Positions 42,001-51,000 of a stretch of 64,000 nt of DNA are shown here, piece after piece (positions within the stretch are counted from its first letter, which is position 1; the number at the start of each line of letters is the position of its first letter). The position numbers are program-made. Source of the DNA: a bacterium (GTDB lineage: Bacteria; SAR324; NAC60-12); contig CBDDTI010000747.1 in the NCBI GenBank assembly GCA_965233585.1, positions 640,001 to 704,000 on the forward strand, given 5' to 3'.

Positions 42001-45000
42001 GCTAAAGATGATGATGATTCTTCTGGTAGTGATGATGATGATCCTCATTTCAATGATCCTTATTTCAATAATCATTATGATGATGATAGTGATAGCCAAG
42101 TAACAATTTTAACCTTAAAAAATGAAACTAGTCAGCCCTTTGGTAAATTTTATATTTCTCCTAGCAGTTCTGATGATTGGGGAGACGATATGCTTCCAAA
42201 GACTTTGTGGCCAGGAGAGAAGTATAAATTTACTATTTCTGATTGTAATAAGGAATACGATTATAAATCAGTAGATTTTAAAGGTCGGGTGAGCATTATG
42301 AGAAGAGATTACGTGAAATGTGGTGAAGATTTTATTTTAAGAGTCCTTAGATTCAGAGACCGAGATGAATCTTAATCTCCTTAGATCTTTTAGTAATTAG
42401 ACTTCTTTAAGCTCTACAAAAATAAACACTCATTTAGGTAGATGATTTTTTTTGGAGTCACTGATTAGGGTTTTATCTAAACCCCCCAGCTTATCCAAGT
42501 AGTTTCCATCAAAGCAACCTGACTGACACGCCCCCACAAAGAATGAACCACTTTCTGGTCAGTCAGGTCTATCCCAATAGCCCTCTTTCAATTTCTAAAT
42601 CTCTTTTCTTTTTCTACTTTCCCATTTTTTTAAAATGGAGAAGTTCATCAAATGCCTTAATGACTAAAGGTTGATGATTCTATTCTGTTTGAAGACAGAT
42701 ATTAGCTTCATCTGTAAAGCCCTTTGTCCTTTCAAAAATTTTCTTTCTTTATTTTATTGATTGAATGCAGAATCTTCACAACGCAGGTGGTCTCTGAGCA
42801 GTTTTGACGTTCTTTGGCAATTTTTTAAAAAAGAGACTGCTTGAGTTAGGACTAGTTGATTCAGAAAGTGGTATGTTCTTTGCAAAAGGTATCGTGTCAG
42901 TCAGAACGATGTTAAAATAGGATTGAATCTATGAAAAGGCAATTTTTAGTTATTGGTTTACTTGTTTGGTCAACGATTCTCTTTGCTCAGGAGCAAGAAG
43001 AGGTCATTCCTGACTCAGAGACAGAGAACTCTTCAGAAGAAGGTTGGAAGAGCAAGTGGAATGACCCCCGTATGAGACAACTTGAAGAGATTTCAGGAAA
43101 GCTGGAGACTTTAATGAACAAGCAAGTCAATGTGTCTTCTGCCGCAGTTTACGAGGTGCGTTTTTCCCCACAGATTGACAAGAATTTTAGGCAAGCGGCA
43201 TTGAGCAAGATGTATCAAGTCTTTAGCCGTGTTCCAGATTTTTATGCCGCACGTTGTGATGAATGCTTTCAAATCCGTACTAAAGTGTCAGGTAACACTT
43301 TGCGTGTAAGTCGTGGGATTGCAGACCCTGAACATCGGCGTAAAATTGCAAGACGTATGAACACAGAAGGATTTATGAAGATCATCATCTCCCAAGTAGA
43401 TCAACAACTTTCTGTTGCCATTGAAATTTACGGGGCAAAGAATGGACAGCTTCTTTTTAGTGAAGTGGTGGCAGGAACGCCTCCCATTCCTGAACCCAAT
43501 GCCTTTGATTTGTATGTAGGTCAAATGAGGTTTGACGTTGCCTTTGAGTCTGAGTCTGCAGATTTTTCCGAAACACAAACCTATCAGCTACCAACTTTGA
43601 CGTTTGGAAAGTCTTATCAAATTCTGGAACATTGGTATTTTACAGGAGACATTAGCATTTTGGCGGATATAAGTCAGAAAGAAGAAGATGCACCGGAGGT
43701 CACTGGGGGCTTTTCAGGACTTGCCTTTTATGGAAGAAGTATTTACGACTTTATCAATATTGGTGTCAATGACAATGTCAGTTTTGGACTCATTACAGGG
43801 ATTGGGCAATGGCTTTCTCCACAGCTCAAATTCCCTGTTTTGTATGCTGTGGGGTTGCGTATGATGATGGGCAGGACTTTCTTGTTTAACTTTGAATACA
43901 TTTCTACTGAAATTAAAGAGGTTCAAGCCACATACACCGACCCAGAAACAGAAGAAGAAGTGGAAGACATGAAAGCATCTGTCAATTCCGCAACCAGTGT
44001 CTCTTTAGGAATCCGTTTTTAGGAAATGATCATGAACTTACAAACTCAATTTTCAGTTGCTCTTTTGACTAGCCTTGCACTTGGGGCGTGTTCTTCAAAA
44101 AGTGATATTGAAGTAGAACAGAATCCAAATACTTCTCGTGTGATCTATACGCATACAAGAAAAAATGAAGTGGTTACAGTGACGGAAGAAAAAACCAAAG
44201 ATGAACATTTGATTCGTGTCAATATAGAACGTGATGGTGAGGTTTCAGAGGCAGTGCATCAAATCCAAGAGCATAATTTTGTCTTTGAAGTGCCACTGAG
44301 AGAAGCCCCTGCTGGAGTATTGGCAAGGAAAGTTGCAGACTATGAAGCCTACATTCAAAAAATCTTTTATGAAGAGATTGCCCAGCACATCTCCACTCAA
44401 CGTTTCACAACGACTGTCAGGGTGTCATGGGATGCGGGTCAGCTAGATACGTTGGATTCTAACTATGACGACCTCAAAACGGACACCTCACAAGTAGATG
44501 TCAGACTAGGCAGTGCCATTTCAAAACTTGATGTGTCAGTCTTGATAGATCAAGGGTTGCCCTCTCGCTATGATGAATTTGTCAAACAACTGATTTTGGC
44601 ACAATATTTTTTCCGTCCTACCAGAGGAGATGCTTTTGAAGTCAGACGTGCCGTGTTTCCTGCCCAAGACTTTTTAGGCAATGACTTTCAATCACGGCTT
44701 TTGACTTATGAATCAGAGGTTCGTCAAAGGTTTGACCAAACTTTAAATCAACACATTGACCCAGAAAATTTTGAAGTTTCATCAAGAATTTTTTGGAATC
44801 AACAAAAACTAGAAGACCTCAAGTTCCAATATCAAAAAGACTCTGGACAACGTCAATCTTCGCAAGATGTTCAATTTGTGACGGCTGTTGACAAACTGCA
44901 AGTAGCAGTCTTATTGGATAGGAATTTATCCAAAGAAAATGATGAATTTGTCAAGTCTCTTGTCTCTGCGCAAGCAGATTTTCAGCAGGACAGAGGAGAT

Positions 45001-48000: not shown

Positions 48001-51000
48001 GGCAATGGAGTTAACCTCTAAATTGCCTGACTTGCCTGACGAAAACACAGCCTCTTTTGATGGGGTGGACATGTTGGCAGACCTCATCACTTTTGCTGAC
48101 AATCAAACAAGAAGGGACATTTTGAAACAGCTTAAACTCAATGACCAAAAGCTAAGTCTGAAAGTAGAAGAGCGAAGTTTTGTTTTTGAATCTATCCCTT
48201 TGATTCCCAAAGAAGTTTTAACAGAAGCGGTAAGACGCATGAACTCTGATGATGTTTTGACAGCATTTGTTGGGGCAGATCGTGAAATCCAGAAAGCAGT
48301 CATCTTGTGTTTTAATGAGACAGTGCGTGGCAATATGGTCTCTCAACTCAAAGCCAAGTCTCCAACTGCTGGTGAGATTGATGATAAGAAACGATTGTTT
48401 GTGGCACAAATCAGACAACTAGCAGACGAAGGAAAGATTGCCCTCAAAGACCTTTATCTGAACTGGCAAAAACGAAGCAGAAAAGCAAGAGTCGCCTGAT
48501 GCTAGAAAGAATCATCACCTTCTTTGGAATTATCATAGGAATTGGATTAATTGGCTTTGGGATTGTTTGGCCTGATAAATATTCTAATGCCTATCTTTAC
48601 AACATTGCACTGATGGAAGCAGACATCAAAGCGATGCAAGAGGCACGGACTCCTTTTGCACAAGTGCAGGCTAAAAGGAGGGAATTGGAAACCTACCGCG
48701 AATCTATTCCTGCCAATGTGGCTCGCTTTCTTGATTTGAAATCTTTTGTCATTGTGTTTGGTGGGTCTTTTGCCGCCTTGCTCATTGCTTTCCCTGCCAG
48801 AAAATCACTGCGGGCATTTTTGTTCATCTCCTCTGCTTTTTTTGGCAAAGACAAGCAAGGGTCAGAATTTGCAGAATACTACAGCACCTTTGTCAAATTT
48901 TCTGAAAAACTCTCTGCACGGGAACTCATCACCGACGAAGACTTTGCATCAATTGAAGACAAAAGACTTCGGGAATGGTTAGAGTACTTCACTGCATCAG
49001 ATTCTGTGCCTGAGGAGATGATTCAAGAAATTATTCGCTCTGAAATTGCCGCCGTAGAACGTACATCAGAAGAAGAGGCAGAACTCCTTGACTTTATGTC
49101 TAAGGTTGCACCTGCATTTGGCATGATTGGAACGGTCATTGGTTTGATTTTGATGCTCGGCAATGTGAATGCAGATGACATTGATATTTTTAAAATCATT
49201 GGTGCAATGGGAGTCGCTATGATTACAACACTTTATGGGGTGGCAGTAGCAAATCTTATCTTCACTCCGATTGCTACCAAACGAAGAAGCCTGATGTATT
49301 CAGAATTGTATCTGATGGAAATGGCAAGAGAGGGAATCCTTTATCTCAAAAACAAACAAACTCCAGAACTTGTCTCAAGAGACCTTATTATTTATTTGCC
49401 AGATAGGATTAGACAACGAATTGAGCAAGAGAAGTTAGAAAAACTCAAATCAGGTGATTTAGGTCTATGAGAAAGAATGTAGGAGAATCAACATGGATGG
49501 TCACTTATGCAGACATGGTCACCTTGCTGTTTATCTTCTTCATCTTGTTGACTGCCATCTCTGCACGTCCCAAAAACTGTAAAAATATCAGTGATTACAT
49601 GGCATCTAATCCACAGAATTTTGCCAACTACGAGCTTCGTGCTACCAAATTACAATGTATCATTTCTCTCCCTCAGGATTTTTTGTTTTCTTCAGGCGAG
49701 GCAAAGCTGAAAGAAGGGGCATTGCGTGAGTTATCCCCTTTTTTTCAAATGATCAAAAACCTTCCTGAACACCAAGAAGATTTAGTCGTGGTAGAAGGAC
49801 ACACTGACAATGTACCAATCCGCACCAAAGAGTTCCCAAGCAACTGGGAGTTAAGTTCGGCTCGTTCTCTTTCTGTGGCAAGGTTTCTGGTGGACCGTCT
49901 TGGATATGCCCAAGAGACAGTGTCAGTCAAAGCCTTTGCAGACACCCGCCCCAAAGTCCCCTATCAAGACCCCTACAATCGCCCACTCCAAGGAAATGAG
50001 CTTAAAAATGCAAGAAAAGCGAACAGACGCATTGAAGTCCTCATCATAGACCAACCCCGCTCCAGAGAAGATGCCAGCATCCTCTTTCAAACTGTCCAAT
50101 AAGCCTACCTTTTAGTGAAGTCAAACAATGACTAGCACCTCAAACGTTCTATGGAAGGATTGGTAAGGATTCTGCCAAAGTAGATTTGAAAAAAATGACT
50201 TGCGGTGCAAACAACAGTGTTTGTTCTTGTTGCAAATAGGAGTCACTTTGAAAACTTGCAGAATTGAGAGAGTGCAGTTGTTTTAGATGAAAGAGTGCAT
50301 CATCATTTCGTTGTGTTTGGGCATAGATGAGGCTTAATCGTTGTAAAAAGATGTCATGTTGCAAAGTGGATTGTCGTCTTTGAAGGAAAGAGACAAGCAG
50401 TTGTTCTGCTTCTTGAAGCATTCCCATCTTGACGTAAAGCAGGCTTAAATCGTCAATCAAAGAGACTTGTTCAGGGAACAACTGATACCCTTGCTCGTAA
50501 ATCTTTTGTGCTTCTTTGTCTTGTTTAAGATATTGCAACGCCCGACCTGCTTGTAAATGCAACAAACCTGCTCCTTTTTTTGCGTTGAGAAAGGGCTGCA
50601 AATAAGTCAAAGTGTTGTCATAGCGTCCCATTTGATTGAGAATGCTGGCGTGAAGATAAGCAATGTCTTCACTGGATTGTTTTGACAAATTTTGGGTCAT
50701 AGCAAAGGCTTGCTGATAACGTTTTTGAAAGTAAAGCAGTCTTGCCAAAGTAAATCTGACTTTGGGAGTGTCTTGAAGTTCTTGCAGTTGCAAGGTCAAT
50801 TTTTCTGCAAGTTCATACTGACCACGCAAGATGTAAAGGTCTATTTGCAAATGCAATAATTGTGGGTCAAGTGAAGATTCTGCTTGCATTTCATTGAGTG
50901 CATTTTCCACACGGTTCCAGTTTTGGGTTTGCATGTCTCTTTGAATTTTAAGCATCTGATAACGTTGGTTGCTAAAATCCAACTCCAATGCTCTAGCAAG

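Follow-up and report, generated by a model that had tools for sequence, protein, structure and literature searches.

FliF and FliG have been joined in one chain both by design and in nature. In engineered FliF-FliG fusions of Salmonella and Vibrio (PDB 8z4d; mBio 2024, PMC11481574) the single chain can reportedly assemble into rings and work, and thus a fused architecture is viable; these fusions contain full-length FliF, with three RBMs and two TM helices, in a complete flagellum. The Chlamydiaceae, bacteria without flagella, carry a natural fusion of a shortened FliF with a FliG domain (Bergeron 2016, PMC4768692), which that paper describes as a protein of about 330 aa that has two TM helices, RBM2, one further RBM and, of FliG, the middle domain only; no dedicated MotAB is reported, and the fusion is thought to act with the injectisome. 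Ion-driven inner-membrane stators are coupled to periplasmic or outer-membrane partners in Tol-Pal, TonB-ExbBD, GldLM/T9SS, AglRQS-Glt and Zorya. GldLM, for its part, drives a periplasmic/outer-membrane ring.

The operon described here (g1 to g6) lies in a 64-kb stretch of SAR324 DNA (the window), and we found no published description of such a module in the literature. Like the flagellar motor core, it has a MotA with conserved prolines, a MotB that carries a plug, a channel Asp and an OmpA domain, an FliG N/M/C-like fold that keeps the MFxF hinge, and a domain like FliF RBM3 in which an insertion sits at the collar position. It departs from that core in several ways: of FliF, g4 has just a single RBM3-like domain and a single TM helix, joined to FliG in one chain; the acidic pair of the torque helix has been exchanged, as has EHPQ; genes for export apparatus, rod, hook, filament, FliM/FliN and LP-ring are absent in and near the operon; TPR/RBM proteins and an outer-membrane barrel take the place of partners; and the module also occurs in genomes without detected flagellar genes. 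Compared with the engineered fusions, g4 is natural, much shorter and part of another operon, and, going by the published description of the Chlamydiaceae protein, it differs from the latter in having a signal peptide, an RBM3-like domain, one TM helix, FliG N-half, M and C domains, and its own stator. The parts list is analogous to that of flagellar periplasmic scaffolds (PflA/PflB/FlgP/FlgQ; FlgO/FlgP/FlgT), but, unlike these, the module occurs without flagellar genes; Pfam and NCBIfam gave no match of the module to those families, and we know of no scaffold protein with a FliG-like domain. With Tol-Pal, TonB-ExbBD, GldLM/T9SS, AglRQS-Glt and Zorya it has in common an ion-driven stator coupled to periplasmic and outer-membrane partners, but its stator is MotAB/PomAB-like rather than TolQ/ExbB-like, and coupling would use a cytoplasmic FliG-like domain that these 5:2 systems lack. 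The features are as follows.

42869..42884, + strand: sigma-54-type -24/-12 promoter element TGGTATGTTCTTTGCA, ending 47 nt upstream of the g1 start codon
42931..44022, + strand: g1, secreted, predicted outer-membrane barrel protein, 363 aa; N-terminal alpha/beta domain (aa ~45-181) and C-terminal 8-stranded beta-barrel (aa 190-362) with GIRF end, from structure model and Foldseek
44026..45636, + strand: g2, lipoprotein, 536 aa counted from the first ATG; lipobox LGAC, three RBM3-like repeats (aa ~100-215, ~216-335, ~340-430), TPR (aa ~460-530)
45633..46703, + strand: g3, secreted repeat/TPR protein, 356 aa; one RBM3-like repeat (invariant KLPGF, aa 159-163), acidic linker, C-terminal TPR
46700..48499, + strand: g4, RBM3-TM-FliG-like protein, 599 aa; signal peptide, periplasmic RBM3-like domain, one TM helix, cytoplasmic FliG-like part
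46775..47170, + strand: g4 aa 26-157, alpha-beta-beta-alpha-beta ring-building motif
47258..47353, + strand: g4 aa 187-218, transmembrane helix followed by RRPKK (positive inside), from sequence and model
47534..48496, + strand: g4 aa 279-598, FliG N(half)/M/C-like domains
48499..49470, + strand: g5, MotA-type stator subunit, 323 aa; ~45-residue insertion between TM1 and TM2 (aa ~26-80), C-terminal SGDLGL tail
49467..50102, + strand: g6, MotB-type, 211 aa; plug, conserved channel Asp (YAD), OmpA-like peptidoglycan-binding domain

Between 42931 and 50102, neighbouring reading frames either overlap, by 1-4 nt, or leave a gap of 3 nt, and g1 to g6 are translationally coupled genes behind a sigma-54-type promoter. 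The TGGTATGTTCTTTGCA element is the sole match, on either strand of the window, to the strict pattern TGGYAY-N5-TTGCW, and 18 of 20 loci have a TGG-N9-TGCW element in the 400 nt that precede the first gene of the cluster. Of 29 related loci, 19 keep the order g1-g2-g3-g4 and ten are short contigs that hold part of the gene set; the genes on either side show no conservation between clades. An earlier note on this DNA had listed six same-strand genes, all of which are present at the positions given; the 534 aa that it gave for g2 corresponds to a start two codons after the first ATG. Its Pfam matches for g2 to g6 were obtained again, the LGAC lipobox and three repeat copies of g2, the RRPKK of g4 and the GIRF tail of g1 can be read in the sequence, and its observation that MotAB is not adjacent in two thirds of related loci agrees with our count, MotAB being apart from the core in 13 of the 19 complete loci and adjoining it in six and in the window.

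The protein that links the rotor-like and ring-like parts is g4. Pfam recognised FliG_M (4.2e-11) and FliG_C (3.9e-12), PDB 8z4d matched both halves of the protein, and the structure model reached a mean pLDDT of 73.9. Between the first two strands of the ring-building motif lies a disordered 40-residue insertion (aa 66-106) with an invariant LPGF, which sits where FliF RBM3 has its collar hairpin. The MFxF hinge is retained (F494, F496), the FliM-binding EHPQ motif has become (D/E)EPx(K/R), and the acidic pair of the torque helix has become S/Q. Residues K264, R281, D288, D289 and R297 (E. coli FliG numbering) are all present in the host genome's own FliG; they are replaced in nine of nine g4 members examined, as the earlier note had read for the torque-helix charges, and also in module proteins of other phyla. 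The rotor-side interface of g4 is altered relative to canonical FliG.

The ring-building repeat recurs in the two preceding genes. Pfam placed YscJ_FliF_C in g2 (2.1e-8; 35.2 bits, cut-off 23.8) together with TPR, and TPR in g3, and a g2 profile run against PDB sequences matched residues 238-323 of FliF (12dr_A, E 6.9e-4). Using hhalign, g3 108-356 aligned with g2 102-536 (97.9% probability, E 3.6e-13) and g4 residues 37-152 with g2 348-424 (95.3%, E 2.3e-8), reproducing the profile links of the earlier note; the profile-profile match of g4 with g3 was weak (32%). Judged by sequence, g2, g3 and g4 share a single family of repeats, which is marked by LPGF and RGD signatures. The g2 of the window carries ~100 extra, motif-repeating residues compared with 19 aligned orthologues, and has lost the LPGF motif that the orthologues keep.

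Pfam gave no match for g1 at E 0.1 (OMP_b-brl at 0.14), and OMP_b-brl is a weak match in 11 of 20 family members. The barrel, which the earlier note had regarded as a weak point, is strengthened by the structure model, which has eight long strands (mean pLDDT 84.2) and matched OmpA TM, NspA, Ail, OmpW and OmpX in Foldseek at E 3e-5 to 1e-3. The LpoB C-domain (TMt 0.61) and TolB were matched as well, and the N-terminal domain has an invariant CxxC (C109/C112) in the family alignment. According to the model, g1 combines an 8-strand barrel in the outer membrane with a periplasmic domain that resembles LpoB and TolB-N.

The last two genes encode a distinct stator subfamily of flagellar type. In g6, Pfam found MotB_plug (6.9e-13) and OmpA (1.1e-13), and in g5 MotA_ExbB (5.4e-23); the MotP, PomA and MotA models scored 1.7e-41, 1.2e-30 and 3.8e-30 with g5, and those of TolQ and ExbB 2e-4 and 1.7e-3. 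The two other MotAs of the host genome are without the insertion and tail of g5. At the column of E. coli MotA R90 the module MotAs have a non-basic residue, most with a basic residue one or two positions off, and the MotA side of the rotor-stator interface is therefore ambiguous.

We think it probable, with some reserve, that the six genes encode an autonomous, ion-driven rotor-stator machine of the envelope, of unspecified output, made of flagellar-motor parts and without a flagellum, and the interpretation given in the earlier note is in this sense supported. MotA(g5)5-MotB(g6)2-type units, which the OmpA domain of g6 would fix to peptidoglycan, would pass ions and exert force on g4 at its cytoplasmic, FliG-like domains. 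Held in the inner membrane by its single helix, g4 would oligomerise through its FliF-RBM3-like domain, probably as a ring with the LPGF insertions as collar, and g3 and g2, with their homologous RBM3-like domains and their TPRs, may stack on or surround this ring and link it to the g1 barrel; transcription would be driven by the sigma-54 promoter. The data themselves establish the identities and folds of the domains, the topology signals, the organisation of the operon, the joint inheritance of its parts, the separate stator subfamily, the changed residues at the FliG interface and the occurrence in genomes without flagellar genes. We infer ring formation from likeness in fold, and we also infer the stoichiometry, rotation, part-to-part contacts and output. 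Our best guess for the output is the moving or tensioning of outer-membrane-linked components, for example in surface motility or envelope remodelling.

Several observations could instead fit an accessory of the ordinary flagellum, in which g1, g2 and g3 form an outer scaffold or disk and g4 an extra ring that recruits a second kind of stator, comparable perhaps with the scaffolds that Campylobacterota build from PflA/PflB/FlgP/FlgQ, or with the rings of Vibrio (FlgO/FlgP/FlgT and MotX/MotY). In many lineages flagellar genes are driven by sigma-54 promoters, and the operon has such a promoter, but no strict sigma-54 site was found at the known flagellar loci of the host genome. An outer-membrane protein, a ring-type lipoprotein, a periplasmic TPR protein, an inner-membrane-anchored protein and a stator parallel known scaffolds (compare PMC12054838). 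Among 88 genomes of the SAR324 phylum, 39 encode g4 and a g5-type MotA, six g4 only, three the g5-type only and 40 neither; all 45 g4 carriers have flagellar genes (43 have FlhA, G069 has FliG and G037 rod genes), and the nine other FlhA-negative genomes all lack the module. The 151 genomes sampled from the Calditrichota-type phylum include 56 with FlhA and 22 with g4, FlhA being enriched among the carriers (14/22). Yet eight of these 22 are without FlhA, and canonical FliG was found in only one of the eight (G139). Flagellin was not found in G105, G114, G163, G221, G234 and G236 in a search in which the controls G108 and G088 were positive, nor were FlhA, canonical FliG, rod genes or flagellin found in G089. 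Since FlhA and FliG are linked in this phylum (within about 17 kb in G088, G090, G091 and G092), they are not independent markers. The operon is intact in G105, G114, G163, G221 and G089, five genomes of unstated completeness that yielded no FlhA, canonical FliG, flagellin or second MotA, the module MotA being the only MotA-type gene found; flagellated carriers (G088, G090, G108) have two. In G236 there is just a divergent g4-like gene, without adjoining partner genes and without a MotA match. Against an accessory also speak the stator subfamily of its own, the replaced EHPQ motif and torque-helix charges, and the neighbourhoods: the 29 ORFs that flank six SAR324-type loci include no flagellar gene, and none was found next to the Calditrichaceae or Thiomicrospira loci. 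As g4 and the special MotA co-occur even where unlinked (in the 5-contig genome G035 they are on separate contigs) and the module is intact where no flagellar genes were detected, the accessory role that the earlier note had kept as a caveat becomes less likely, and we regard it as distinctly unlikely. The earlier note had also called this a conserved SAR324 operon; the module is not limited to that phylum, and a five-gene version, g4-g1-RBM/TPR-MotA-MotB, is present in five of five Calditrichota/KSB1-type loci and in a Thiomicrospira chromosome. With the same gene set in several phyla, including genomes without flagellar genes, the module looks like an undescribed envelope motor.

Such a motor might also work without a closed rotating ring, with MotAB acting on g4 as TolQR on TolA or ExbBD on TonB, and g4, as monomer or small oligomer, passing conformational energy through g3 and g2 to g1. 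The single TM helix and small periplasmic domain of g4 and the TolB-N/LpoB-like domain of g1 would suit this, as would the outer-membrane tethers (lipid anchor and barrel), which are awkward for free rotation, so that a ring would need to slip somewhere. The other non-flagellar 5:2 motors known to date all power envelope processes (compare PMC9389320). The stator is, however, of flagellar type (MotP/PomA/MotA models at 1e-41 to 1e-30, against 2e-4 for TolQ and 1.7e-3 for ExbB), and contact would be made through a cytoplasmic FliG_C-like domain, where Ton/Tol use a TM helix within the stator. Moreover, the periplasmic domain of g4 matches FliF RBM3 including the collar-position insertion, and to our knowledge RBM3 is known only as a ring former. 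We therefore consider linear force transduction unlikely, and retain the rotor-stator machine as the preferred reading. The module, which consists of flagellar homologues below curated equivalog cut-offs, could be taken for a duplicate of flagellar genes that is in decay or has no function, but this is very unlikely, close to negligible: the frames are open and the genes translationally coupled, gene order is kept across several phyla, and family-specific invariant residues are retained. A profile search matched 147 distinct cluster representatives (50%-identity clusters) at E<=1e-30, and more than 100 matches, of 560-780 aa, cover the whole profile.

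The interval 42931-50102 is filled by six plus-strand ORFs, whose junctions are one 3-nt gap or overlaps of 1-4 nt. We refer to them as g1 (barrel protein), g2 (lipoprotein), g3 (secreted protein with a ring-building motif, RBM, and TPRs), g4 (FliF-FliG-like fusion), g5 (MotA-type) and g6 (MotB-type), and to all six as the module. The domain matches given in an earlier note could be reproduced with Pfam and NCBIfam: YscJ_FliF_C and TPR in g2, TPR in g3, FliG_M and FliG_C in g4, MotA_ExbB in g5, and MotB_plug and OmpA in g6. In our opinion, the most economical reading is that the six genes probably encode an autonomous ion-driven rotor-stator machine of the cell envelope.

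The structure of g4 was modelled using a 23-sequence alignment (mean pLDDT 73.9). From the N-terminus, the model begins with a signal-peptide helix, followed by an alpha-beta-beta-alpha-beta unit resembling ring-building motif 3 (RBM3) of FliF, and the predicted parts are (residues of g4):

30-45 helix, 54-65 and 107-119 strands, 125-139 helix, 148-153 strand: RBM3-like unit
187-218, then RRPKK: membrane helix
234-275 long helix, then helical domains up to residue 598: cytoplasmic part

Residues 66-106 form a disordered insertion that, according to the model and the family alignment, holds a family-invariant LPGF. This layout makes g4 a naturally occurring fusion in which a single TM helix joins one FliF RBM3-like domain to a FliG-like part. 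The RBM3 fold with its insertion at the FliF collar is found in g4, and so is the three-domain FliG fold (N, M and C armadillo-like domains). The FliF MS-ring has about 33-34 subunits, and by analogy with RBM3 of FliF the RBM3-like domain of g4 probably builds a ring as well. The FliF layout of two TM helices around RBM1-RBM2-RBM3 is absent, g4 having one RBM and one TM helix behind a signal peptide that looks cleavable, and PF01514 matched none of the six module proteins in Pfam. Unlike FliG, a soluble protein docked on the C-terminus of FliF, the FliG part of g4 is fused behind a TM helix, and g4 scores below the FliG equivalog cut-off (TIGR00207, 76.5 versus 226.7 bits).

For the rotor-stator interface, the FliG of E. 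coli and that of the genome itself were included in the alignment. Residues K264, R281, D288, D289 and R297 of E. coli FliG are all kept in the latter and replaced in nine of nine g4 members, which have S/A/T/N and Q/S/T at D288 and D289, respectively. The acidic pair is likewise lost in the module proteins of Calditrichota/KSB1, Thiomicrospira and the SAR324 genome G044. In place of the FliM-binding EHPQ motif of FliG_M, g4 has (D/E)EPx(K/R), with E384 and P385 invariant, and the MFxF hinge is kept in the g4 members. These replacements in the FliM-binding motif and the torque-helix charges fit a rotor that stands outside the flagellar switch and that, judging by sequence, may not be driven by flagellar stators. 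Thus, g4 fails as a FliG by cut-off, torque residues, EHPQ and soluble state, and as a FliF by the number of TM helices and RBMs, yet it has the folds of both.

The stator proteins rank closest to flagellar ones, with MotP, PomA and MotA models of NCBIfam at E values of 1.7e-41 to 3.8e-30, against 1.7e-3 for ExbB and 2e-4 for TolQ. All flagellar models match the module proteins below their curated cut-offs (for MotP 142 versus 394, for MotD 114.7 versus 283). A MotA_ExbB channel domain in which P173 and P222 of E. coli are kept, a MotB plug, the channel Asp and an OmpA-like domain are all present. The g5-type MotA differs from the genome's other MotAs in a conserved insertion of ~45 residues between TM1 and TM2 and in an SGDLGL tail, both of which the other MotAs lack. 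In seven g5-type MotAs the columns of E. coli MotA R90 and E98 hold S/V/N/N/N/Y/N and E/E/A/A/D/A/A, a result that depends on the alignment, a basic residue lying 1-2 positions away in most of them; the genome's two other MotAs have R and D/E in these columns. A loss of the charge pair on both the rotor and the MotA side was considered, and the MotA half was dropped since it hinges on this alignment shift of 1-2 residues.

The remaining genes point to further copies of the periplasmic unit and to an outer membrane protein. In profile-profile comparisons, residues 37-152 of g4 matched the third repeat of g2 (95.3% probability, E 2.3e-8), and g3 matched g2 over a repeat and the TPR (97.9%, E 3.6e-13). 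The g2 profile also reached residues 238-323 of solved FliF (E 6.9e-4). From these similarities we infer that g2 and g3 carry the periplasmic unit of g4, the fold being assigned by homology to the g4 domain; three repeat copies are present in the window's g2 and two in most orthologues. In the model of g1 (pLDDT 84.2), eight long strands come after an alpha/beta domain that carries an invariant CxxC. Like small barrels of the OmpA/OmpX type, g1 has a signal peptide, eight antiparallel strands (residues 190-362 of the model) and a C-terminal aromatic residue, a phenylalanine that is invariant in the family. Foldseek matched the barrel to the OmpA TM domain, NspA, Ail, OprG, OmpW and OmpX (E 2.7e-5 to 1e-3). 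Sequence searches gave less: g1 had no Pfam match at E 0.1, its profile had none among PDB sequences, and the Pfam barrel model matched 11 of 20 family members weakly (best 8.7e-5).

Within SAR324, a search with the g4 family returned only SAR324-like proteins. The 29 related loci all come from MAGs labelled SAR324, Delta-/Proteobacteria or 'bacterium', and the order g1-g2-g3-g4 is found in 19 of them, the other 10 being short contigs with a partial set. The position of motAB varies: 3' in the window and in locus L001, 5' in L016, L021, L024, L026 and L028, and non-adjacent in 13 loci. In the clade with motAB before g1 (L016 to L028 of this list), g2 is split into two adjacent genes of about 214 and about 450 aa (e.g., L016:7043-9045), and its repeats keep a KLPGF loop that is lost from the window's g2. 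Flanking genes common to the clades were not found, the flanks varying by clade, and the two ORFs 5' of the module in the window (228 and 178 aa) have no counterpart in the 29 related loci. The same is true for the convergent 3' neighbour (50149-52050, minus strand), a 633-aa multi-TPR protein directly after motB. In L001, two large CarboxypepD_reg/Calx-beta proteins (789 and 693 aa; L001:11296-15901) follow MotB directly, the first overlapping its end; they are candidates for lineage-specific partners or cargo.

Among 88 genomes of the SAR324 phylum, g4 was found in 45, including G044 with a divergent version only, and a full-length g5-type MotA (at least 427 bits) in 42. Both were present in 39 genomes, g4 alone in six (G022, which has a truncated fragment at a contig end, and G032, G036, G037, G019 and G044), MotA alone in three (G011, G033 and G034, with a completeness of 51-72%), and neither in 40. 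In the marine genus the two genes lie on separate contigs, as in the 5-contig genome G035. Since they co-occur despite this separation, the g5-type stator is a dedicated partner of g4 even when unlinked. The same marine genus (genus label g2) has a third MotA type that stands beside the g5 type and the ordinary flagellar type; it scores about 240-270 bits against positions 70-303 of the g5 profile and lacks the insertion (e.g., G027:C3:52261-52944).

The g4 profile was also searched against 1.84 billion representatives. This gave 4675 matches at E ≤ 1e-3, mostly ordinary FliG, and 147 at E ≤ 1e-30, the latter being distinct 50%-identity clusters. In addition to about 20 of SAR324 type, there are more than 100 proteins of 560-780 aa whose match covers the full profile, including the periplasmic domain. 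These distant proteins fall into 11 BLAST groups and keep the LPG(L/F)P loop and an RGD. One group was traced to a Calditrichaceae MAG, two KSB1 MAGs and two unclassified MAGs, and all five loci are a single operon of a g4-like gene, a g1-like gene (373-379 aa), an RBM/TPR gene (215-228 aa), motA and motB. Another group led to a 1.92-Mb Thiomicrospira chromosome, where a 409-aa protein and then a 189-aa TPR lipoprotein precede the g4-like protein (727 aa), MotA and MotB, and the neighbouring genes are metabolic. Protein P0093 had no match in the genome contigs. Apart from clusters of the family itself, the ESM Atlas yielded weak leads only; those from a feature search with g2 (0.80-0.82) are FliG_M, FliG_C and TPR proteins of 561-627 aa, mostly from Elusimicrobiota.

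FlhA is present in 77 of the 88 SAR324 genomes and in 43 of the 45 carriers of a g4-like gene; with the canonical FliG of G069 and the rod genes of G037, all 45 carriers have flagellar genes, and the module was found in none of the nine other FlhA-negative genomes. Taken alone, this co-occurrence fits a flagellar accessory, in a phylum where the base rate of flagella is high and related genomes are not independent. No flagellar genes were found among 29 flanking ORFs of six SAR324-type loci. The window's genome (G000) is 12 Mb in 747 contigs and its flagellar genes are scattered, so that remoteness from flagellar loci is less telling than it would be in most bacteria. Its canonical fliG (G000:C746:65245-66258, minus strand; locus L040) is solitary between greA and rplM-rpsI, away from fliF/fliH, and its other stator genes are on another contig: a motA beside flgH/flgA/flgG/flgF, a further motAB pair and two more motB-like genes.

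As an independence test we used a sample of 151 genomes from the phylum of the Calditrichaceae MAG. A g4-like gene was found in 22, FlhA in 56 and both in 14, leaving eight carriers without FlhA. Because a canonical FliG was found in one of these, G139, it is probably a flagellated organism that is incompletely assembled. In the other seven (G105, G114, G163, G202, G221, G234 and G236) the only FliG_C match is the g4-like protein. Flagellin was not found in G105, G114, G163, G221, G234, G236 and G139, the controls G108 and G088 being positive, and G202 had one weak match (35 bits). In G089, the genome of locus L054, FlhA, canonical FliG, rod genes and flagellin were looked for and none was found. 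The five-gene operon is intact in G105, G221, G163, G114 and G089; G234 has g4 and g1 at a contig end, and in G236 a divergent g4-like gene is all that was found. A search with the MotA profile gave two MotA-type genes in each of the flagellated carriers G088, G090 and G108, of which one belongs to the flagellar cluster and the other to the module, and the module's MotA alone in G105, G114, G163, G221 and G089. These apparently non-flagellated carriers are genomes of 3.7-7.6 Mb that come without completeness figures, and FlhA and FliG are linked in this phylum. Even so, the five intact operons in genomes lacking four markers, one of which is unlinked, speak against a need of the module for a flagellum.

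In the autonomous machine that we favour, MotAB-type units fixed to the peptidoglycan would work on g4, assembled in the inner membrane, through its FliG-like domains. The ring would probably be formed by the RBM3-like domain of g4, and g3 and g2, with their homologous domains and TPRs, would extend this assembly to the outer membrane together with the barrel g1. A Tol/Ton-like transducer that works without rotation is an unlikely alternative. In its favour, the N-terminal part of g1 resembles the LpoB C-domain and the TolB N-domain (Foldseek); against it, the stator proteins rank with MotP, PomA and MotA, ahead of ExbB and TolQ. That the module is an accessory of the flagellum seems distinctly improbable, as the expectation for a scaffold found only together with a flagellum holds in SAR324 and fails in the Calditrichota-type phylum, in five genomes whose completeness figures are not given. 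The Pfl/FlgP/FlgQ and FlgO/P/T scaffold families were absent from the Pfam and NCBIfam matches, lists that distant kinship may escape. For genes kept in order and closely spaced, a functionless remnant is scarcely credible. The more specific version of the autonomous machine is a free-standing rotary motor in which a FliF-RBM3/FliG fusion ring with its own MotAB-type stators is joined by stacked RBM/TPR rings to an outer-membrane barrel, with neither secretion apparatus nor axle, and we put it forward tentatively, as a possibility that is open to considerable doubt.

To our knowledge, FliG and the MotAB/PomAB-type stator have been regarded as specific to the flagellum. In a recent (2025) classification, this stator clade is named 'flagellar ion transporters' (PMC12505986). 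Among known systems, the module comes closest to the flagellar motor core, to FliF-FliG fusions made in the laboratory (8z4d; PMC11481574), to the natural FliF-FliG(M) fusion of Chlamydiaceae, to flagellar periplasmic scaffolds and to other 5:2-motor systems. The Chlamydiaceae protein is described as having about 330 aa and two TM helices, with RBM2 and one more RBM, and of FliG the M domain only (PMC4768692); by this description, its architecture differs from that of g4. No published description of the module operon was found in the full-text literature, a scope outside which most subscription journals lie.

If the free-standing motor is real, ion-driven envelope machines would gain a new class, found in many phyla and also in non-flagellated bacteria, and the motor could be a stripped-down descendant or a surviving relative of a pre-flagellar rotor-stator core. 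It bears on the evolutionary assembly of the flagellar motor because a rotor-stator core would exist apart from the type III export apparatus. It would also add a member to the short list of 5:2-ion-motor machines (flagellum, Ton, Tol, T9SS/gliding, Agl-Glt and Zorya), and, as a minimal and genetically compact system, let one study how FliG rings are turned by a stator. According to a 2025 survey, 11% of non-motile species have rotor proteins without filaments, and their role is asked (PMC12199754); the module makes this question testable and would, if the motor is real, give such 'rotor proteins without a filament' a concrete function. An envelope or surface behaviour that has gone unrecognised may depend on the module in marine SAR324, Calditrichota/KSB1 and the sulfur-oxidising Thiomicrospira.

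The operon has a 556-bp AT-rich gap (GC 0.34) on its 5' side. A search of both strands of the window with the strict sigma-54 pattern TGGYAY-N5-TTGCW gave a single match:

42869-42884: sigma-54-type -24/-12 element, TGGTATGTTCTTTGCA

A TGG-N9-TGCW element lies within 400 nt 5' of the first cluster gene in 18 of 20 loci (exceptions L017 and L023), against a background of 27 occurrences of this loose pattern per 128 kb (both window strands) and with the identical 16-mer common to the marine-clade loci counting as one observation. With a possible sigma-54 co-regulation of the module and flagellar genes in view, the strict pattern was also looked for in the whole genome, where it has 63 matches and was not seen at the known flagellar loci. 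In the three largest contigs, 15 of the 16 strict matches with an ORF behind them belong to one repeated element. This element, found outside the module on contigs C745, C746 and C747 (e.g., C747:621-1004), carries TGGTATTGTCATTGCA, a sigma-54-like -24/-12 motif, 36 nt 5' of a 115-aa ORF, and is probably an insertion sequence.

G044, a 9.7-Mb genome of the same family, has a second, divergent version of the module (locus L051, G044:C11:86001-104000, ORFs 7150-15009):

L051, module parts: g1-like protein, 341 aa, E 5.9e-25; 715-aa protein without assignment; 746-aa FliG-MC-like protein, unrecognised by Pfam
L051, stator: MotA with N-terminal insertion, E 1.5e-72; long MotB, 449 aa

As in L001, a CarboxypepD_reg protein belongs to this cluster; it has 1410 aa and stands before it, and a phage-sheath-like gene follows. 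Elsewhere in G044 (locus L052, G044:C62:40001-56000), the minus-strand ORFs 6266-7591 and 10474-11604 encode proteins of 441 and 376 aa with FliG_C as their sole recognised domain. They sit among type II secretion pseudopilin (T2SSG) genes and are possibly another non-flagellar use of the FliG domain.
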